Shown here in pieces: positions 9,322 to 59,730 of a stretch of DNA of 64,000 nucleotides; position 1 is the stretch's first letter, and every line of letters starts with the position of its first letter. The stretch comes from a phage, in the sequence record PZ534534.1; one strand, 5' to 3'. The notes beneath the pieces are model-generated. The model saw nothing but the letters and a program-made list of their open reading frames with translations. It searched no databases and was not told the origin of the DNA. The position numbers and the translations under genes were made by a program.

Positions 9322-10298
9322 TGTCTGAAAAAACGATTACTATTAAAGAGAAGGGGATTGCCCTGTGCCATAAGGCGCAAGGCTATAGCGCTAACAACAG
9401 ACCTGTATCTCTTTTAATGAAGAGTGATCTTAAGCCTGAGCAGTTAACAGACGACATTGTTAAGGCACTTCGCCAAGTTACTGTGGAGCTTAGTTTTGAA
9501 GAATACCTGCGTCGTTTCTTCGATATGTGGTATGATGATGCTAAAGCACTTGCACACATGCTTGGTTTTGAGATTGAAGAGGAGGCTTGGGCTAAAGAGC
9601 ATCCTGATTGGGAATGGGCGCAAGCTGACGCAGAGTCTTGTATTGCATGGCTGGAAGAGCGTTGTGATAACGTGACCATTCATAAAGCTGCAAAAGAAGG
9701 CAAGCAGCTTAGTGTGGTAGATCAATACAGCCTGTTAAAAACACAACAGATTTTTGAACAAGTAACCGCTGATCTCTTCGATAAAGAAGGGAACCTGATC
9801 AAGGCGGTACAGGAACCTGCTGAGGTGGATAAAACTACCGAGGTGGATGATGTTGCAAAATCCGCAAATACCGAGGAGAATCCGGTGGACGTAACCAAAA
9901 CTAAAGAGTATCTGGATCTGCTGAAGCAAGTAGAAGAGCTGAAAGCAACCCAGAGTAAAGCTGAAGAAATCATCAAGGCCCAGGTTGAAGTTGAAAAAGC
10001 TAAAATGCTGACTAAGGCTCAAGCTTTAAGCTTTGTTGGTGAAGAAGATCACGCAACCCTGGTTAACTTCATGCTGGAAAAAGCTAACGAACCTATCGTA
10101 GCTATGCTGGAGAAAGCTCAAGCAAAAATTGAAGAGCTGGAAGCAGAGGTGCATAAAACTAAAGAAGAGTTTGCCACCACTGAACATGGTAATGATGGCG
10201 AACCTGTTGTGGATGATATTGCGAAATCCGCAGAAGAAATTCTTGCTGAAAACGTTGCAAAAGCACTTGCTCGTGCACGTGCAGAATCTAACAAATAA
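9321..10298 (+). CDS. scaffolding protein (putative)
   Basis: 325 aa, highly acidic, Ala/Glu/Lys-rich predicted coiled coil, located just upstream of decoration/capsid genes. Confidence 0.5.
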   Translation: MSEKTITIKEKGIALCHKAQGYSANNRPVSLLMKSDLKPEQLTDDIVKALRQVTVELSFEEYLRRFFDMWYDDAKALAHMLGFEIEEEAWAKEHPDWEWAQADAESCIAWLEERCDNVTIHKAAKEGKQLSVVDQYSLLKTQQIFEQVTADLFDKEGNLIKAVQEPAEVDKTTEVDDVAKSANTEENPVDVTKTKEYLDLLKQVEELKATQSKAEEIIKAQVEVEKAKMLTKAQALSFVGEEDHATLVNFMLEKANEPIVAMLEKAQAKIEELEAEVHKTKEEFATTEHGNDGEPVVDDIAKSAEEILAENVAKALARARAESNK

Positions 10299-16810: not shown

Positions 16811-16837
16811 GCCTCACCTTCGGGTGGGGCTTTTTGC
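16811..16837 (+). terminator. rho-independent terminator
   Basis: Hairpin CCTCACCttcgGGTGGGG followed by CTTTTTGCTTTT. Confidence 0.65.
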
Positions 16838-24552: not shown

Positions 24553-27150
24553 ATGCGTATTCAACACAACATTGATAACGTATTTCAGATGATTGAGGGG
24601 CACAGGAAGTGCCTCGATAACAACACAGGTATTACCAACACACCTACACAAAATAAGCTAGTAAACCCTGATGGTCTTATAGCTGCAGGGTGGGCAGGTA
24701 ATAAGATAAATAACGATTGGGCAATGCATGAGTCCCAAGCTGTGTTGATTCTGGGATACATTGAAGCATACAGGGCATCGAAAAGCGATTTCTATCTGGA
24801 TAGGGCAAAAGATGCTTGGGAAGCTTACAATAGTCATCTTCTGGGTGCATATGCCGTAGAAAGTAAAATGCAAAGATTGTCCCACTACCCTCTATCCACA
24901 GATGGGGTTCCATCACACGGTGGGTTTAAAGATGTGGTGGTGTCTTTTACCAACGGTAGAGGAAAAATCCCAGCTGGATCTCCGACATGGGGGGAATACC
25001 TGGACAAGGCATTCCAAGCGTATAACGGTGTGTTAGGAAGAAACACTGTAGACTCTGATGTTTACGGTGGCACAGATGCTAACCCAGATTGGACAACATC
25101 CGGATTAAGTTGGTGGGTTGAGTGGTACATAGCATGGGATGGTAACCGCTATTGGGCTAACGGTAGCATAGCCGACAGTGGTCATACGTCTGTAGAGTTC
25201 GGCACAATCCAATTACAAGATAAGGGTGTTACAGGCAGCCACAAGGTGACCTATTGTGTAAGATTACCTCAGGAGCAGGGTGGATCGGTGATACCTGCAG
25301 GATCCCCTGTAATTGTAAATCCTATAAACGTGGTTGCAGATAATCAGGCCCCAGAGTTGGACGGGGAAGAAATGTGGTGTGACGCTTGTTATCAACTCTA
25401 CACCTTGACAGGTGAGGAAAAGTATTACACCGCGTTTGAACAGTCTTACAACAAACTGCTTAATTTCAGTGATATAAACGCCTACGACAAATTGTTTAGA
25501 AAGACCACGTTGATTAAGGCACCGTTTACAGATGGTACTTGTCTTGTTGCAGGAACAGTTCCTGTCATGAGCAGGGACAGTGACGGGTATATCAATTTTA
25601 GAATGAACGCACGCCAGCCTTGCGAAATAATCCAAAAAGGGACTACATACAAAATAGGCAGAGATGCTGAAATTGTTATGAATTTCGGAGGAGAGGGGGT
25701 TCTGTTCCAGCCACATTTCATCCTTAATGATGGCAACAATAACAAAAAACAGTACAGGATAGGGGTTCCTTTTGGAAGGGCAGAGGTAACAGAAATAGTT
25801 GCCAAGGTTACCGATTTCGTAGAGGTGGTTGGTAAAGACGGTAATCCGTATCTCTTACCTAAAGAGGAAAACATTGCCGTAAGCGGTGGTGCTAGTGTTA
25901 GTATGCAGTATGATACCGACATTTACAACCACTCTGACAACTTCACCCGTTGTAATATAGCAAGAGGTAAAGTAACTTTCAATTTTGGAAGAGAGATTTC
26001 TTTAAACTCAGTAACTTATCGATCAGATGATGAGATGGTAAGGGTCAAATTTCTTGACAAAGACAGGTGGTTATGGTATGCTGATCTATATGCCACCAAT
26101 GGACAATGGATAACAGAAACTCTTACTCTAGGAGATTTCAAACTAGATCCGACACAACCTCATCACACCGAAGAAGAGATTAAACCTTTCTTTGCTAATC
26201 CTAAGGGACTAACCTCTGTAGATTTCAGTCTAAGCGACAGGCAGATAGGTAATGGCTTGTTTGATCTGTATTGCGTCAACACGCTGCCGCAATTCTATAT
26301 TGCAGATAGGGATGCTTATCTAATCTGGTTTAGCGTGTGGATGGCAAGCAAGACAGAATCAACCGCTAAGGTTGGCGATTGCTATGTCAGAAACTACAAG
26401 CAAGGTGCATACAGGCACACACCGGGTGTGTTCCCTGCCGGAAAGGTGATAGATAAGGAAAACTATCTCTTAGAGGAAAAGCCAAATTGGCCCTACCCTG
26501 GCATGCAATACCCAGCAGTCTACTGCATGGGTGCAGAAAACATAGATCGCCATAGATTGTCAAATACAATAGGCTTTCTGTATGACGCTCAAGTCTGGTA
26601 TAATAATACATTTAGGACAGAGGGTCCAGTTGCCTCACGTTATGTATGGCAGAGAGGCAATGAAGGGTTGACTGGTTGGTGGGAGATGGTAGATAACTCT
26701 AAGCTCCAGTCAAGATCTTTTGTTGCTGCGTGCCGCACAATATATGAGCTCAAGAAACATAAAGAACCTGTTGATGAAAGACTGTTCCTGTTCTGCCAGA
26801 AATGGGCATGGTTCCTCAACAGATTCCAGTCATCTCATTCAGGAAATCTGCCTACAGACTTTAACACCTCTGGGGGATACTCTTATCAAGACAGAGGGGA
26901 CAGGATGTGGGTGGTAGGTGAATGGCTTGCAGGTTGCTGCTGGCTAGGTCTGTGCGGGTATTCAGAGACAATACCTCAAATAGATATTGTTGTAGAAGCC
27001 TGTGTGAAGCTACTGCAAAAGCACCACTTCATTAATGGGGATAATATTTTAAACGGCTGCTGGGCAGTTTCTGATCCGGTTGGCTATCACTCTGGCGAAA
27101 TCCTTCGCGGTCTGGGTCTTTATGCTCAATACCGTGGATTGTACCTTTAA
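24553..27150 (+). CDS. large tail-associated protein, putative polysaccharide depolymerase (tailspike-like)
   Basis: 865 aa immediately following the anchor-domain protein; Trp/Tyr-rich sequence suggestive of a carbohydrate-active fold; function inferred, not demonstrated. Confidence 0.4.
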   Translation: MRIQHNIDNVFQMIEGHRKCLDNNTGITNTPTQNKLVNPDGLIAAGWAGNKINNDWAMHESQAVLILGYIEAYRASKSDFYLDRAKDAWEAYNSHLLGAYAVESKMQRLSHYPLSTDGVPSHGGFKDVVVSFTNGRGKIPAGSPTWGEYLDKAFQAYNGVLGRNTVDSDVYGGTDANPDWTTSGLSWWVEWYIAWDGNRYWANGSIADSGHTSVEFGTIQLQDKGVTGSHKVTYCVRLPQEQGGSVIPAGSPVIVNPINVVADNQAPELDGEEMWCDACYQLYTLTGEEKYYTAFEQSYNKLLNFSDINAYDKLFRKTTLIKAPFTDGTCLVAGTVPVMSRDSDGYINFRMNARQPCEIIQKGTTYKIGRDAEIVMNFGGEGVLFQPHFILNDGNNNKKQYRIGVPFGRAEVTEIVAKVTDFVEVVGKDGNPYLLPKEENIAVSGGASVSMQYDTDIYNHSDNFTRCNIARGKVTFNFGREISLNSVTYRSDDEMVRVKFLDKDRWLWYADLYATNGQWITETLTLGDFKLDPTQPHHTEEEIKPFFANPKGLTSVDFSLSDRQIGNGLFDLYCVNTLPQFYIADRDAYLIWFSVWMASKTESTAKVGDCYVRNYKQGAYRHTPGVFPAGKVIDKENYLLEEKPNWPYPGMQYPAVYCMGAENIDRHRLSNTIGFLYDAQVWYNNTFRTEGPVASRYVWQRGNEGLTGWWEMVDNSKLQSRSFVAACRTIYELKKHKEPVDERLFLFCQKWAWFLNRFQSSHSGNLPTDFNTSGGYSYQDRGDRMWVVGEWLAGCCWLGLCGYSETIPQIDIVVEACVKLLQKHHFINGDNILNGCWAVSDPVGYHSGEILRGLGLYAQYRGLYL

Positions 27151-27185: not shown

Positions 27186-30100
27186 ATGGCTGATATTAAA
27201 GTTGTCAGAATTGAATCTCTTCCTGCCACTACCGCAGTGACAGAGGATGATTACCTGGTTGTTCAACAACCAGACCTGACTCGTCGTGTAAAAATTGGCG
27301 ATGTTGTCCATGTGGATGGGACTGTTTCTCATGTAATCTCCTTTAAGGAAGGTGGTAAGTTAAACGGCCCAATGGATTTTGCCTACTTCGAAGAGGAAGA
27401 CCTCTACCTGCGTTGGAAAGGCGAATTTCCACACACTGTTCCTGCACTGTCTTCACCGTACGCTGATGGTGGGATTACTGACGCTGCATGGATGGTATAT
27501 ACTGACCCGTCCCTAAGGGAGGAGCTGGAATCTACCATTGGCGCATCTATGATCATGACAGCCGAAGGGCAGTCTGTCCAGGATGTAATGGATGTTACTG
27601 TTCAGACAGCTAACGATGCTAAAGCACTTGCACAGCGTGTAGATTTTGGTACAGTGCACACTGTAGGCGATGTTATTCACCTTGATAACTTTGTTGGCCC
27701 TGCAGTTATTGAAGAGGGAAGAACTACCAACTACCCTTCTGTAGCAGCTGGTGAAAAATTTCTGAACGGTGTGGTATCTCGTCGTGATACTACAACTGTT
27801 GATGGTATTTTCCGTGGCGCTACCACCGGAGCTATGTACACCATTGCAGTAACCAACGGTGTAGCAACAACAAAAAGAATAGCACTTCGTGATGAATTTA
27901 AACGCCTAGAGACAAATAACCCAACAAGAACAGTTATCCGTGCTGGAGATGATTTAAATACGGCAGGGTACTTGCAGCTTGATGCAACAGGCCGTTGGGG
28001 TATGTGGAACCAACAAACAGCTTCGTGGCAACCTCTTGCTATAGAGCAAGGCGGCACAGGGGCTAGAGATGCCGCTGGAGTCCGTATCAATATCGGTGCT
28101 TTCTATAAGCAGCGTGCTGCGCTTGATGCAAATTTCAATATCAATAATTTGACTGGTAATCAGGATGGTATATACTACCAGCCGATGACTGCTAATGCAA
28201 CTGAGGCAAATGGTTACCCTGCAGGTTCTGGTGCTGGTCACTTGATTGTTTGGCAGAACAATGCTAACGGCGGTACAGGGTGTCGTCAGGAATACTATCC
28301 ATTCTCTAACGTAGATGTTTGGTATTTGAGAACCTATCAGGCCAACACAAATCAGTGGACTGCATGGCAGCCGATGGTCAGACCTCGTAACGATGATACC
28401 TTCAGATCTCATATTGGCCTTGGTAAAAACAACTCGCCAGCCTTCGGGCACCTTTACTTAGCTCAATACTCGGGAGATGTTAAATCGGCCTCAGGTATTC
28501 TCCATGGAGATAAATATAATACTGACGGTGTCCTTGAGCATGGATATAGGATCTATTCTGAGGTAAGAAACGACAATAAGGCTTGGTTGACAATCCACCT
28601 GCACAAAGGTGCAAAAGGATCTGAAACTCATAGATATTTAGGTTTACGCGAAGACGGCGTGTTAGACTGCCCTAAATACATGCAGGTTGGGGATCTTACT
28701 GGTCAGCTGACAAACTGGGGACTTGGAGAGTGGATTCGTAGTTCAGGAGCAGAAAGAGGCTTCTGGGGGTCCAAGAAAGCCGCCAAGATGGTCGTCTGGG
28801 ATGGTGGGATGGATGAGTCCGGTAACGGCACTCTGGAATGGGGTGTTTATAACAACCGGAAGGCCAAGTGGGAACCTTTATCTCACGCCGCAGGTGGCAC
28901 TGGGGCTACAACCCTGGCAGATGCTCAGAATCTGTTCAAAGTTCCTATAGCTGCGGGTGTCAAAGATTTCTTAACACTGCCAAGAACTGCAGGGATGGAA
29001 GATGGGAAATACTACCCAATCATCGTTAGAACAGATCCGTACTATGCTCCAGCAACTGGTACTGATATTACCATAGTTACCAGATCGTCATCCGGCAGTG
29101 ACCCTATGAACTGCGCTACTCTGCAGTGCCATTACAGAACTGGGGGCTGGACAGACAGAGGAGACTCTTTCTACGGGGTAGTAAATTTCTACCAGAATGA
29201 AAAAGCACTTCTTGGGATGGTTGCTCCAACAAGGGGTAAACAAGAGTATGTTGCTTTCTATGTAGAGGCTCGTGCTTTCCCTGTCAGCGTATACGCAAGT
29301 AGAAATGTTGTAGAAGTGTTTACCAGAGAGCAAGATTACCAGGTCGGAGCTGTAACAGACAATCAGGACGGTGTTAAGTTTGTTGCGCCTCTCCAGTCAG
29401 CAGATTTGAATCTTGCTGTTCTTGGAGATAACAATACCAACACCAGACCTATTGTTGACTTCAAAGGTACCTCTGGGTTCTACACTGGCGGCGGCACACA
29501 GTGGCACTATATAGGCACTGCTGAACGCTATGCGGTGATGAGCAAAATGAACATGCCTAAAGTCGAACTATGGGCTGACGGTATTGACTATTTGTGCTAT
29601 GGCAGCCCTAGAAAGGCGTTATTCTCTAATGCAGGATTCCAGTGTGCATCAGATGGAACAGAGGATCTAACTAACGGTACGTTTACCTCTAAATGCGGTA
29701 ATGGTGCTGGCCTCAAAGGTCAGGCAGAGTTCAGATCTACCCCAGAAGCTGGTCAAGTTATTGTTCGCGATGTTGTGGGCACAGCTCACAGATTCTACAA
29801 TTTCAACAAAGACGGTACTTTCTCGGCCCCTGGTGGTTTTGTATGTCATACTGGTGGAGACTGGAACAACCAGTTTGGGTCTAATAACCCGTCAAAAATA
29901 ATGGCGGGTAATGTTAACGGACCAGAAGGCTCGATGGTTGTTGGTGGACTGTCTGTGGCGTTCTCTGGAAACTATGCTTTCCAAATGGCTGGACGCCTTG
30001 ATCAGTTATACACCAGATCTATCGAGGGTGGTAACCATAGAGCGTGGAACAAGGTCATACAACACAGAGGGCAAGGTCTGGGGATTAATGACCTTAACGA

Positions 30101-40871: not shown

Positions 40872-41912
40872 ATGTCAAAACCTAGTTTTCCATTAGAGAT
40901 TTGGGCAGAGGAGGATCAGGTTCTGCCTAACACCCACAGACAGAACAGGCTACGCCCGATTGATGATTTGTGGAGAAAAGGTTGGGATCTTGGTCAAAAG
41001 CCATCCTGTGAAGAACTTAACTATATTTTCAATATGCTCGGAACTTGGGCAAAATACATTGCTGACGAGCAGATCCCCGCTCAAGAAGGCCGTTATCTGG
41101 TACGTGATAATAACTTGAGCGATCTTTTGAACATCCCTGTTGCCCGTAGAAACCTTGGGATTATCACTAAGGAAGAGGCAGACGCCAGGTATGTAAAAGT
41201 TACAGGTGATACAATGACAGGCCCCTTGGGGTTGCAACGTATCAACTTTAAAGCTGCCGAGACAGATAAGGCTTGGATAGAGACAACTATTGGCCCAGAT
41301 AAGACAACTCTCGACTTTGGGTTAAGTGATAATACCGGGTCGTTTGATGATGGTGGTACATCTACAGTAGATGCGTTTCGTTGGAGATTCCAGCCAACTC
41401 AGCCGGATATTAATCCAGAGTTCACTTTGATGTACCTTAACGCGATCACGGCTAATCGTGCGCTGTTGAAAGTGGTAGGCAATGTTGAAGTTGTCGATAA
41501 CATGAGGTGCAATAACCTTACTATCAGCAATACAGCAACATTCACCAACTGTAATGTGGCTAGTCAGTTGACGGCTGGGTCAGTATATGTTAATGGTGGT
41601 GCAAGTTGTGACAGTATGGTTGTAAGAAGCCAGCACTGTGTTGTCGGTAACAGAAATGTGGTGCGCTCCGTGAATGGAGTGACGGCTAACGGTAACGGTG
41701 ATGTAACGATCACTATCCCGCAGACAGGTGTGCAAGACATCAGAATCGGTGCAAGACTTGTGGACGGCGTTTCTGAATCTCCAATCCGCAACGGCTACGT
41801 TGTCACAGGCTGGCATTTCGGTGACAAAAAAGAGATGCGTGGTTCAACCTACTGGGCAGGACCTTTACAAAAACTTGTAAATGGTCAATGGATCACTGTT
41901 AATTATGCATAG
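40872..41912 (+). CDS. tail fibre protein (paralogue A)
   Basis: 346 aa; paralogous to 42927..43970 (same N-terminal PLEIWA.EDQVL and C-terminal QKLVNGQWIT..YA ends); followed by a Tfa chaperone gene. Confidence 0.6.
   Translation: MSKPSFPLEIWAEEDQVLPNTHRQNRLRPIDDLWRKGWDLGQKPSCEELNYIFNMLGTWAKYIADEQIPAQEGRYLVRDNNLSDLLNIPVARRNLGIITKEEADARYVKVTGDTMTGPLGLQRINFKAAETDKAWIETTIGPDKTTLDFGLSDNTGSFDDGGTSTVDAFRWRFQPTQPDINPEFTLMYLNAITANRALLKVVGNVEVVDNMRCNNLTISNTATFTNCNVASQLTAGSVYVNGGASCDSMVVRSQHCVVGNRNVVRSVNGVTANGNGDVTITIPQTGVQDIRIGARLVDGVSESPIRNGYVVTGWHFGDKKEMRGSTYWAGPLQKLVNGQWITVNYA
41868..41897 (+). repeat. 30-bp direct repeat copy 1 (3' end of fibre paralogue A)
   Basis: CAAAAACTTGTAAATGGTCAATGGATCACT identical to 43926..43955. 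Confidence 0.9.
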
Positions 41913-42926: not shown

Positions 42927-43970
42927 ATGACTAAACCAGTTATCCCTCTTGATATTTGGGCCAATCAGGATGTTGTGCTTGAAAATACGGGAGAGTTGAA
43001 TAAATCTCAACCAAAAAAAGAAGAGAGATTGAAAGGTTGGGATATGACACAAAGAATGGCATGTGAAGTTGTTAACTTTGAACTTCACATGCTTTCTGCG
43101 TGGTTGAAGCATTTAACAGAAGATGTTGTCCCAGGATGGGATAATAGATTCTTAAGGGTCACTAATAATCTAGCAGACGTTCCAGACAAAGCTGCTGCAC
43201 GTCAAGTTCTCAATGTATACTCACCTGAAGAAATGGACGATCTATATGTTGACAAGTCTGGAGACATAATGACTCAGACTCAAACTTTAGGTCTTCAAAG
43301 AATCGAGTTTGCATCTGCGTCAACAGACAGTGCGGCAATATATACCACCATAACTCCAGACAAGACGACGATGGATTTCTGGATTATGGACAACATCGGT
43401 GGTGCTGACGGCACAGACCTTGATGATCCTTCTCACCAAATAGATGGGTTCCGTTGGAGATTTCAACCTTCTGGTGGGCAGCCTGTGTTTTCAGCTATGA
43501 AGCTCAATGCTATAACTGCCAACCGTGCAAGACTGGCTATCCAAGGAAATCTTGAATGCAACGATGCAAAAAGTTCCTCTGCAAATGCCAATGCGGTCAC
43601 GATACCAAGAGCCACTGTTAATGGACAACAATCCTGCGGAAGCGCTCAAATAGGTGGAAGAGTTGATTGTAACGATGAAACCGTCAGGGGCCAATATGCA
43701 ACAGTTGGTGGAAGAAACGTGGTCCGCAGGGTAAATGGTAACGGCGCAGACAGTAGCGGTAACCTTACTATCCCTATGCCTAGCAGAGGGGTTGATGATG
43801 TAAGGATAGCAAACCGTTTTAAAACCACCTACAGAGAGTCAAGAGTCTACCCTGGACATGTGATGTGCTCTGGTAACTACGCTTATAAACACCCTTATCA
43901 AGGTGATTACTGGACAGGTGCTATCCAAAAACTTGTAAATGGTCAATGGATCACTATATCTTATGCTTAA
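42927..43970 (+). CDS. tail fibre protein (paralogue B)
   Basis: 348 aa; ATG at 42927 with AGGAGAA RBS; paralogous to 40872..41912. Confidence 0.6.
   Translation: MTKPVIPLDIWANQDVVLENTGELNKSQPKKEERLKGWDMTQRMACEVVNFELHMLSAWLKHLTEDVVPGWDNRFLRVTNNLADVPDKAAARQVLNVYSPEEMDDLYVDKSGDIMTQTQTLGLQRIEFASASTDSAAIYTTITPDKTTMDFWIMDNIGGADGTDLDDPSHQIDGFRWRFQPSGGQPVFSAMKLNAITANRARLAIQGNLECNDAKSSSANANAVTIPRATVNGQQSCGSAQIGGRVDCNDETVRGQYATVGGRNVVRRVNGNGADSSGNLTIPMPSRGVDDVRIANRFKTTYRESRVYPGHVMCSGNYAYKHPYQGDYWTGAIQKLVNGQWITISYA
43926..43955 (+). repeat. 30-bp direct repeat copy 2 (3' end of fibre paralogue B)
   Basis: Identical to 41868..41897. Confidence 0.9.
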
Positions 43971-57398: not shown

Positions 57399-58439
57399 TT
57401 ATTTAACGTGTTTGAAAATACCTGCCAACTCGGTCATTGTCATGCGGGTGGTCTTCATAAGATCTGTCATAGCTTTCTCCATAATTGGAGATACTACCAT
57501 AAAGTTTCCTTTAGTGAAACCTTTATTCCAGTCGGTCACCAACAGGGGTTTAAGTCCAGCTCCAAGACGTTCACCAGTTAAAGCACAGCATTTGCGAATA
57601 TACGAACTCTTAAATTGGCTGAATGACAGATCAACTTTCATACCTACATCGTAGAACGTTTGACAATAGAAAGTGTAAGCTTTGGCAATCTCAACATCAT
57701 CAGGTAGTGCAGGAACCTCTTCTGTAAGCTCCTCTTCGACCTCCTGAGTCTCTTTTTCCTCTTCATGCACCTGTTGCGTCATTTCTTCAATCTCTTCTGT
57801 GATAGGCTCGTTTACAATGTCGGAAATGTGCTTCTTGGGTGCACGATAAGTAACTTTAGACATCGGTAGCATATCTTCCTCCTCTTCTTCGTCAAAGAGT
57901 GCTAGTTTATCCTCTTCCGTTCCATATTGCAAGATGAAATCTTCAAAAGTATAATCACCTTTCAATTTCTCCATACGCTCTTCGCTCAGGTGGAGCATCA
58001 TCTGCTGGACAATTTTTCGATCAGTTTCGTCTTTAATCAAGACTGCAGTCTTTTTATCTACCAGACAGTCCTTTAGAGAGTTGCATCTCAATCCCACCAC
58101 ACAACAGTTATCAGCCGCATAAGGACCTTCATCATCTATCCGCTCCAGAGATGGGTAGAAAGGATTCCCCAGCCCGTTTTCATCTGTGTGCATGTCAAAA
58201 GGTATAAGGGTATAGTCGCATACTCCATCTCCTAAAAGTTTTTTACCAAATAGGAGGTATTCTTCCCATGACAGGTCGAACTCTATATCTCGTTTCCGTG
58301 CGTTATTCTGTTTGCGTCTATATTTTTTGAGCAAGCGCTCTAACTCTTCTGGTGTATAATATTTTTCAAGATTCATGAGTCGTCTCTCGTGCTCTGTAAG
58401 TGAAGAAATCGTATCAATTGTCTCAACAGATGTCAACAT
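57399..58439 (-). CDS. hypothetical protein with N-terminal His-Me finger (HNH-like) nuclease-like motif and acidic linker
   Basis: Pattern CDYT...SLERIDDEGPY..NC.....CN..K resembles an HNH nuclease core; poly-Glu linker; ATG at 58439 (ORF-track TTG at 58442). Confidence 0.45.
   Translation of the reverse strand: MLTSVETIDTISSLTEHERRLMNLEKYYTPEELERLLKKYRRKQNNARKRDIEFDLSWEEYLLFGKKLLGDGVCDYTLIPFDMHTDENGLGNPFYPSLERIDDEGPYAADNCCVVGLRCNSLKDCLVDKKTAVLIKDETDRKIVQQMMLHLSEERMEKLKGDYTFEDFILQYGTEEDKLALFDEEEEEDMLPMSKVTYRAPKKHISDIVNEPITEEIEEMTQQVHEEEKETQEVEEELTEEVPALPDDVEIAKAYTFYCQTFYDVGMKVDLSFSQFKSSYIRKCCALTGERLGAGLKPLLVTDWNKGFTKGNFMVVSPIMEKAMTDLMKTTRMTMTELAGIFKHVK
57840..57868. repeat. 29-bp inverted repeat, left arm (inside minus-strand gene)
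   Basis: Exact reverse complement of 59702..59730. Confidence 0.9.
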
Positions 58440-58450
58440 CAAAAACGTGT

Positions 58451-58479
58451 TGACTTTACTCTAACTCCACAATATAGTG
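58451..58479 (+). promoter_or_regulatory. sigma70-like promoter (TTGACT-17-TATAGT) in divergent intergenic region
   Basis: Hexamers with 17-nt spacer about 40 nt upstream of the ATG at 58519. Confidence 0.55.
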
Positions 58480-58518
58480 CACCCATTCGAAAGAAAACTA
58501 ACATAGGAGCACTTACTT

Positions 58519-59418
58519 ATGGCAAATCTTAACAGTTTTAGTACGCGGTGGAAACAGGACATAACAACCAATCTTTCAGCTGGGGACATCCTTTCTGCAA
58601 TTTACGAGGCTTTAGATGATAAAGCTACTTCAAAAGCGGTTTGTACCAACCCATTAATTCCTATAGTGATGAAGGTTATTGAGCGTAGATTGGTATCTGG
58701 GTCTGATAAGTGGACATATTTAGATAATGAAGGACACACCTATTCCAATGGGTATGTCGATATAAAAGTAGAATACGCGGTATCATACCGCCGGAGCGGT
58801 TCTGTAACTTTCAACTTCTCTGGAGGTTTTCGATCTCTGGCTACCTCACCTTTTGTTTCCTCAGAGGAGAAGTATGAGCTGCCATTTCTTTGGATGATGG
58901 CTAACGCGACAGGAAAAACCCCCGTTAGCATCCGAGTAAAATACAACTACAACGGATCTAGTAAGATCTATGCCGAAAGTGTCTCAGCAAGTTTTTATTT
59001 TGTGATGGGGGATGGAATCCTCAAACATATAAAGATGTGCGATATGCATGATGTTATAAATGAAGTGACTGATAAGAATGTTCTAGTGAAAGACCTCAAC
59101 AATTTTTATACACCTGGAGACTATTACGTCAGCCGTCCGCTGTGCATCTTTAATGCCGCACACCCTCTAGGTGAGTATTTGATCGCCAATAGCGATATTG
59201 CCAATAACCGCTTCGAGGTAGCAAGAGTTCAGAATGAGGTATTGACATCTTGCAAGAGCGGTGATAAGTTTACCGAAGAAGAGATGGGTGTTTTAGAAAT
59301 GATGGGATATAAGTGTAGCCTTTGGGTAGATGAGGTGTTTAATGATTGCATCTATGGACAGGATATTTACCCATTAAAGAAGTATACTGATACAAGTTTA
59401 ATTTATGCGAGGGTTTGA
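58519..59418 (+). CDS. hypothetical protein
   Basis: 299-aa ORF, first gene of + strand block. Confidence 0.45.
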   Translation: MANLNSFSTRWKQDITTNLSAGDILSAIYEALDDKATSKAVCTNPLIPIVMKVIERRLVSGSDKWTYLDNEGHTYSNGYVDIKVEYAVSYRRSGSVTFNFSGGFRSLATSPFVSSEEKYELPFLWMMANATGKTPVSIRVKYNYNGSSKIYAESVSASFYFVMGDGILKHIKMCDMHDVINEVTDKNVLVKDLNNFYTPGDYYVSRPLCIFNAAHPLGEYLIANSDIANNRFEVARVQNEVLTSCKSGDKFTEEEMGVLEMMGYKCSLWVDEVFNDCIYGQDIYPLKKYTDTSLIYARV

Positions 59419-59693
59419 CTATGATGAAGGCATGTGGTAATGTATATTACGTCGGTGAACATGTTCAGGCAGACAGTGTGTGGAAATCTATTAAGTCCAC
59501 CACTGACGATGCCTTTCTGAGTGGACTATGTTTCCCCAATCCGGGAGACATCCTCCCTCATCCTGGAGATTTTGTTGTCAACAAGATGGACGGTTATACC
59601 GTGTGCCTGATGGTTGAAAAAATCTTTTTAGACACTAGACACAATCACCGTCTTGTGTTAAAATTTCAAGAATGTAAAATGACAATTGCCTAA
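59415..59693 (+). CDS. hypothetical protein
   Basis: 92-aa ORF overlapping upstream stop by 4 nt. Confidence 0.4.
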   Translation: MTMMKACGNVYYVGEHVQADSVWKSIKSTTDDAFLSGLCFPNPGDILPHPGDFVVNKMDGYTVCLMVEKIFLDTRHNHRLVLKFQECKMTIA

Positions 59694-59701
59694 GGAGACC
59701 T

Positions 59702-59730
59702 TACCGATGTCTAAAGTTACTTATCGTGCA
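59702..59730. repeat. 29-bp inverted repeat, right arm (spans start codon of 59707 gene)
   Basis: TACCGATGTCTAAAGTTACTTATCGTGCA; exact reverse complement of 57840..57868. Confidence 0.9.

Follow-up and report, generated by a model that had tools for sequence, protein, structure and literature searches.

Work in E. coli and yeast has established that quasipalindromes can be corrected by template switching, and microhomology-mediated break-induced replication, also described as fork stalling and template switching (FoSTeS), is known for kilobase template jumps that are guided by microhomology and accompanied by point mutations near the junctions. For phage T4, mutations templated by imperfect direct or inverted repeats were reportedly described by Schultz and Drake in 2008 (Genetics 178:661). 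That study is cited for templated mutation in two later papers (PMC5941160 and PMC8604942), the first of which set a spacer limit of 70 bp in its search, while the second, on yeast coding genes, linked switching to shorter spacers. Here we describe a perfect 29-bp inverted repeat in a 64,000-nucleotide stretch of phage DNA (sequence record PZ534534.1), referred to below in its full length as the window. The window comes from an rV5-like coliphage of the genus Vequintavirus, Murica group, and its repeat region is 99.9% identical to that of phage pangalan and 99.8% identical to that of Murica. The right arm of the repeat covers the start of the homologue of rV5 gp008 and the left arm lies within the homologue of rV5 gp011, a divergently oriented gene (hereafter gp008 and gp011). 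Comparison with related sequences makes it very probable that the left arm arose by a single and recent ectopic templated replacement, guided by microhomology, from the start of gp008, and that this replacement is confined to a sub-lineage. Templated mutation is an established process, of which this repeat would be a further instance.

The sequence TACCGATGTCTAAAGTTACTTATCGTGCA is present in exactly two copies in the window, one on the plus strand and the other as its exact reverse complement (Table 1), and no third copy was found within the 64 kb when up to three mismatches were accepted. Every other perfect repeat in the window is shorter, and 100 shuffles gave an expectation of 0 for a match of 29 bp. 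No other perfect inverted repeat of at least 24 nt exists in pangalan, the closest complete genome, where the two further perfect repeats of this length are direct. Identity breaks off sharply at both ends of the arms, which are flanked by unrelated sequences and separated by 1,833 bp, and the AAGGAG Shine-Dalgarno sequence of gp008 is found just outside the right arm. Both arms encode the peptide MSKVTYRA in frame. A preliminary description of this DNA had reported an exact inverted repeat at this position that reads MSKVTYRA in both orientations, and in these respects it was accurate: the match is perfect, sharply edged and not due to chance. Its heading had also presented the arms as the starts of two divergent genes, which applies to the 118-aa gene on the plus strand and not to the minus-strand copy, located in the middle of its gene.

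The region was taken from 16 relatives, with identities of 88–99.8%, and aligned with MAFFT. The right arm is found at the start of gp008 in 16/16 of these relatives, with occasional point variants, and the left arm is restricted to those that carry one particular allele of the gp011 linker, which we call type C (...EEEEEDMLPMSKVTYRAPKKH...). Type C is found in 28 of about 118 Vequintavirus records, and 27 of these 28 are identical over 81 nt. A long allele, with identities of 80–100% and one copy per genome, is found in 90 records, where the peptide at the spot of the left arm is MSPMQDFKNFMADRAANKH. The aligned relatives carry it as type A (rV5, JES2013, V18, the slur16-like phages and Aya) or as type B (FV3, A147 and HMD-6). 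Both types read GATATG TCA CCR ATG CAG GAY TTT AAA AAY TTC ATG GCT RAT CGT GSA GCC AAC, encode MSPMQDFKNFMA(D/N)R(A/G)ANKH and are 12 nt longer than type C; the type phage, rV5, is among those without the left arm. A donor for the ancestral 25-nt stretch was not found elsewhere in the genome in any of the 90 records, each of which contains the stretch in a single place. Beyond these records, a metagenome scan returned one identical type C contig, from the gut, together with four chance matches, and a scan of IMG/VR with a degenerate pattern returned only one type A contig and one type B contig.

A search of 5.8 billion proteins supplied two intermediate outgroup homologues of gp011, P0015 and P0016, which are 62–65% identical; a syntenic contig of 64 kb encodes the former. 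In both, the linker sequence is EEEP-MTPAQELREFMEKRAEKH, a clear homologue of the version of types A and B and not of MSKVTYRA. Because these outgroups share the long version, sequence comparison identifies the long allele as ancestral and type C, with MSKVTYRA, as derived. The diversity of the long allele, set against the near-uniformity of type C, likewise indicates that the former is old and the latter young. The gp008 homologue in the P0015 outgroup begins with MKIVILRN; this different start argues that the donor sequence is a feature of Vequintavirus and was copied within that genus. The more distant Vequintavirinae PVP-SE1, Av-05 and VIK251 keep the N domain, the acidic linker and the C domain of gp011, with linkers that cannot be aligned, and the same layout is conserved in Seunavirus, Avunavirus and Mydovirus as well as in the intermediate homologues, which do not have the repeat. 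Since all relatives and outgroups without the repeat show the two-domain layout, this architecture is older than the repeat, and gp011 is to be annotated as one two-domain gene, not as a fusion. Of the earlier suggestion that a nuclease gene had been fused onto a duplicated gene start, the duplication of the start therefore stands, whereas the fusion does not; the N-terminal domain, whose presence or absence in related genomes had been proposed as a check, is kept in relatives and outgroups without the repeat.

The left arm equals the start of gp008 at 29/29 positions, and the donor sequence is itself ancestral, being present in all the aligned relatives. The ancestral recipient already matched the start of gp008 at two places, with ACC(A/G)ATG as the 5' match and ATCGTGCAGC as the 3' match, and in the ancestral alleles the replaced stretch is bordered by ACC(A/G)ATG and (A/G)ATCGTG(C/G)AGC. 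Pairs of sites with two such anchors (10 nt and 7 nt, within 5–40 nt) number 2,524 in the 137-kb genome. As anchor pairs are this abundant by chance, the two sites need not have been related beforehand. In all, 12 nt and thus four codons were lost, and the reading frame was preserved.

According to the reading that we favour, the ancestor of the Murica-type Vequintaviruses would have possessed a gp011 linker of the form ...GAAGATATG TCA CCR ATG CAG GAT TTT AAA AAY TTC ATG GCT RAT CGT GSA GCC AAC..., with chance microhomologies to the start of gp008, the two sites being 1.8 kb apart on opposite strands. A growing DNA 3' end would have paired at one of the microhomologies, copied the start of gp008 (TCTAAAGTTACTT and neighbouring bases) and returned at the second one, so that approximately 41 nt would have been swapped for 29 nt in frame and MSPMQDFKNFMADRAANKH converted into MLPMSKVTYRAPKKH. 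The molecular route that we infer is either template switching during replication or the repair of a break by synthesis on an ectopic donor. As the gp011 and gp008 genes are divergent, the switch would have been to the opposite strand, which could have taken place across the replication fork or, more simply in an infected cell, onto another copy of the genome. The change was probably neutral, and the linker, as an acidic spacer that evolves fast, would have tolerated it. Ordinary homologous recombination between co-infecting Vequintaviruses may later have spread the type C allele. On this view, the perfect inverted repeat would be a by-product without demonstrated function.

Several observations weigh against a single replacement of this kind. 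The arms are 1.8 kb apart, whereas documented template switches are mostly short-range, and neither the phage records nor IMG/VR nor the metagenome scan yielded an intermediate allele. In addition, copying alone does not fully account for the junctions. The outer neighbours of the left arm are both C (positions 57839 and 57869), where both the donor and the ancestral recipient carry T (5') and G (3'), and five bases further downstream a change of AAC to AAG (position 57834) matches neither donor nor recipient. A clean copy would have given a repeat of 32 nt (TTACCGATG...GTGCAGC) instead of 29. These junction-adjacent bases may stem from error-prone synthesis at the junctions or from later substitutions in the fast-evolving linker. 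Finally, the linker outside the patch is 10–13% diverged between alleles, compared with 4–6% in the flanks; with type C at this distance from the other alleles, its exact parent allele must be unsampled.

The locus resembles T4 templated mutagenesis and quasipalindrome correction in that a multi-nucleotide replacement, found in one lineage, reproduces the sequence of a second site of that genome exactly, has microhomologies at its borders and turns an imperfect inverted repeat into a perfect one, here also in a virulent coliphage. The main difference is the distance, since the arms are 1,833 bp apart instead of a few to tens of bases; a hairpin intermediate is not plausible at this spacing, and an intermolecular or cross-fork switch is more likely. 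A further difference from the T4 system is that the event was deduced from natural variation and not from reporter-gene selection, and that the two bases adjacent to the junctions are untemplated. The kilobase jump guided by microhomology and the changes near the junctions are shared with microhomology-mediated break-induced replication and FoSTeS, which are known for large rearrangements in eukaryotes and bacteria, whereas here 29 nt were copied before the return. The short-range template-switch clusters known from comparative genomics (e.g., PMC7954356, PMC8794818 and PMC8604942) are also similar, as a substitution and an indel result from one copying event on an inverted template, in coding sequence and in frame. 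They differ from the present case in distance, which is here of the order of a kilobase, in the donor, here the start of a different gene, and in the product, here an eight-residue peptide common to two unrelated proteins.

On the favoured reading, one event would have deleted codons in frame, introduced eight new residues and left two unrelated proteins with a peptide in common, which illustrates one route to fast-evolving linkers and to multi-nucleotide “mutation clusters”. The locus would represent an unusually clean natural case of templated mutation over 1.8 kb in a virulent phage, with an ancestry backed by outgroups, an identified donor, identified microhomologies and a single origin. 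It would also show that a striking perfect inverted repeat across two reading frames can arise without function, and calls for caution before such repeats are read as switches or operators.

Among the alternatives, the one that survives best, although we consider it unlikely, is that the type C linker was imported by homologous recombination from an unsampled relative and that the copying occurred there or in several steps. The region is indeed mosaic. Compared with the window, phage inoa is 0.6–0.7% divergent in the type C linker and the C domain and 5–8% divergent in the N domain and gp010, while ECP32 shows the reverse pattern, its type C linker being joined to a C domain with a divergence of 7%. 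The occurrence of the type C linker on differing backgrounds implies that the allele has been moved by homologous recombination. The divergence of 10–13% from the other alleles outside the patch and the junction-adjacent bases that match neither donor nor recipient would also fit an import. This explanation, however, merely relocates the event, since even then the patch copies the start of a Vequintavirus gp008 at 29/29 positions, and the phage records, IMG/VR, the metagenome scan and the search of 5.8 billion proteins yielded no other source.

The arms are not identical in all the phages that carry them. Alma and ECP32 each have two mismatches between their arms: in Alma the left arm reads TACCGATG...GTTACT and the right arm TACCTATG...GCTACT, and in ECP32 the left arm reads TACCTATG and the right arm TATCAATG. 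No co-variation of the arms was observed among the aligned relatives. ECP32 has a G-to-T change at arm position 5 (TACCTATG) in its left arm, and Alma has the same change in its right arm; this could be a coincidence or the result of a second conversion between the arms.

It is very unlikely that the repeat is a functional RNA or translation element, acting either as an operator on both mRNAs or as a transplanted start from which the C domain of gp011 is made, beginning at Met172. Such a role would be in line with the identical sense sequence that spans an AUG on both mRNAs, with the GAGGAGG found upstream of internal ATGs in the minus-strand gene and with the presence of the type C allele on several distinct genomic backgrounds. 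The distribution of the element points in the opposite direction, as there are only two copies in 64 kb, even at three mismatches, and the left one does not occur in most relatives or in any outgroup. Copying did not extend to the Shine-Dalgarno sequence of gp008, and both the internal Met and the GAG-rich run are found in the ancestral alleles and predate the patch, so that no new start was added. Local RNA folding at the arms is unremarkable (z-scores of −1.2 and −0.7), and the arms have not been held identical. The shared translational operator put forward in the preliminary description thus finds no support in a pair of copies of which one is specific to a sub-lineage, whose sequences diverge in Alma and ECP32 and which carry no RNA-structure signal.

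The same description had raised the possibility of an invertible segment. Inversion of 57869–59701 would fuse the N domain of gp011 in frame to gp008 and place the C domain of gp011 behind the ribosome-binding site of gp008, and the arms might accordingly be regarded as crossover sites of a programmed switch of the Gin/Cin/Hin type, a reading that we regard as hardly credible. The gix, cix and hix sites have a range of lengths that includes the 29 bp of the arms. The arms are in the same reading frame, so that both products of an inversion would be in frame, and the divergent promoters lie inside the segment, so that both flanks would stay transcribed after a flip. In this respect the locus resembles the serine invertase systems (Mu G/Gin, P1 C/Cin and Salmonella Hin), where short inverted repeats lie inside open reading frames (ORFs) and a flip would swap protein parts in frame. 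It differs from them in that neither a recombinase gene nor a genome with the second orientation was found and in that the left site is not conserved, and membership in this family of switches was rejected on these grounds. Both hypothetical inverted junctions were built, and the right-hand one was searched against 50,697 phage records, which are consensus genomes. The query was never covered whole in the related records (0/119, including the 28 with both arms), which gave half-length matches only. No recombinase was detected by Pfam or PHROG matches in the seven surrounding genes, and the annotation of the complete pangalan genome lists no invertase, resolvase or integrase. Furthermore, 90 of about 118 relatives do not have the left arm, and the arms of Alma and of ECP32 are mismatched. 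The text of the rV5 genome paper also mentions no recombinase (PMC3606486).

An inversion independent of any recombinase is a separate matter. Homologous recombination requires a minimal length of homology that is close to 29 bp. The arms might permit a rare inversion of the 1.8-kb promoter-bearing segment in Murica-type phages, giving rise to a subpopulation with the fusion and a free C domain, although we attach very little weight to this idea. If it were true, the in-frame fusion of the gp011 N domain to gp008 and the free gp011 C domain, produced from the gp008 ribosome-binding site, would amount to a newborn, unprogrammed “switch” made by a template-switch mutation.

A chance match or an assembly artefact can be practically dismissed: the left arm is absent from most relatives, as the preliminary description had supposed for a chance match, but no match of this length is expected in shuffled sequence and 28 phage records that were sequenced independently, as well as one contig from a gut metagenome, contain the same sequence.

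Table 1. Coordinates in the window of the two arms, the neighbouring genes and the predicted promoters
Feature	Coordinates	Strand	Description
Left arm	57840..57868	−	29 nt in the acidic linker of the rV5 gp011 homologue; residues 172–179 (MSKVTYRA)
Right arm	59702..59730	+	From −5 to +24 of the rV5 gp008 homologue, with the ATG (59707) and codons 1–8 (MSKVTYRA)
rV5 gp011 homologue, 325 aa	57399..58376	−	N domain, acidic linker, C domain; same coding sequence annotated in relatives
Divergent promoter region	58408..58478	both	Predicted, sigma-70-like: leftward 58436–58408, rightward 58450–58478
rV5 gp010 homologue, 299 aa	58519–59418	+	Between the arms; PHROG match of unlabelled function
rV5 gp009 homologue, 90 aa	59421–59693	+	Between the arms; PHROG match of unlabelled function
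rV5 gp008 homologue, 118 aa	59707..60063	+	phrog_12908 over its full length, E=7e-80; coding sequence in relatives

Regarding the genes around the repeat, the annotation of relatives places the start of gp011 at the ATG that corresponds to 58376. A longer ORF of 347 aa on the minus strand, started at a TTG, probably extends too far, given that the predicted leftward promoter overlaps its first codons. The gp011 protein matches phrog_3118, labelled “HNH endonuclease”, with E=5e-113, and more weakly PHROGs of the Srd/anti-sigma and endonuclease VII type; it is annotated either as “Srd-like anti-sigma factor” or as “HNH endonuclease”. No Pfam family was found at E≤0.1, which includes the absence of an HNH domain in the N-terminal half. 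The HNH-like N-terminal domain of the preliminary description is therefore not borne out by Pfam, and the label derives from PHROG and RefSeq names only; in the rV5 genome paper gp011 is a probable Srd homologue (PMC3606486). A comparison of the N and C domains of gp011 gave no significant sign of an internal duplication (BLASTP E=1.3). The gp011 frame is broken in its N-terminal part in V18 and Alma, where shorter coding sequences of 822 nt and 795 nt, respectively, are annotated, which reflects either sequencing errors or a dispensable N domain.

The start of the gp008 coding sequence is annotated at this same site in Murica, rV5, FV3 and others. As the preliminary description had indicated, the segment of about 1.8 kb between the arms holds two genes and a predicted divergent promoter. 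The two genes, the gp010 and gp009 homologues, match phrog_12338 and phrog_12847 and have no Pfam or recombinase match; they are bystanders. Each of the two divergent sigma-70-like sites scored 10/12 in a consensus scan, and promoters are annotated at the corresponding place in rV5 (P11) and in Gotham. Promoter-like sites just upstream of the arms, at 57895–57868 on the minus strand and 59636–59664 on the plus strand, are at chance level, with a regional count of 8 against 6.2 expected.

Other repeats were noted in the window and in pangalan. A perfect 20-nt direct repeat, GATGCTAAAGCACTTGCACA, is found at 9537–9556 and 27615–27634, with unrelated flanks; by our estimate, about 0.004 chance matches of this kind are expected in 64 kb. 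Its copies lie in a head decoration/scaffold gene and in a tail-fibre gene, and both are full-length across Vequintavirus. If it is another templated patch, it is an old one, because both sites are conserved across the genus. A 62-nt direct repeat with 84% identity and a perfect core of 30 nt, at 41850–41911 and 43908–43969, is found between two neighbouring paralogous tail-fibre genes. Pangalan contains, at 24974–25019 and 25595–25640, a perfect direct repeat of 46 nt whose copies are 621 bp apart; it includes TTGACA-like sequence, lies among small early genes and is probably a duplicated promoter or regulatory module.

Four GC-rich hairpins, at 16812, 30995, 36502 and 62605, consist of CCCCGCTTCGGCGGGG followed by a run of T, share the loop motif GCTTCGGC and look like intrinsic terminators. 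Seven tRNA genes (Arg, Tyr, Ser, Thr, Met and Pro) are clustered at 1852–2664, among them an unusual tRNA-like gene at 2321–2419 for which ARAGORN calls a 4-base anticodon and which is given as “tRNA-OTHER” in pangalan. Finally, 16–18 unverified “Campylobacter phage” records (e.g., MG065635 and MG065644) are 93–99.6% identical to this E. coli Vequintavirus, which probably points to mislabelled hosts or to contaminated preparations.

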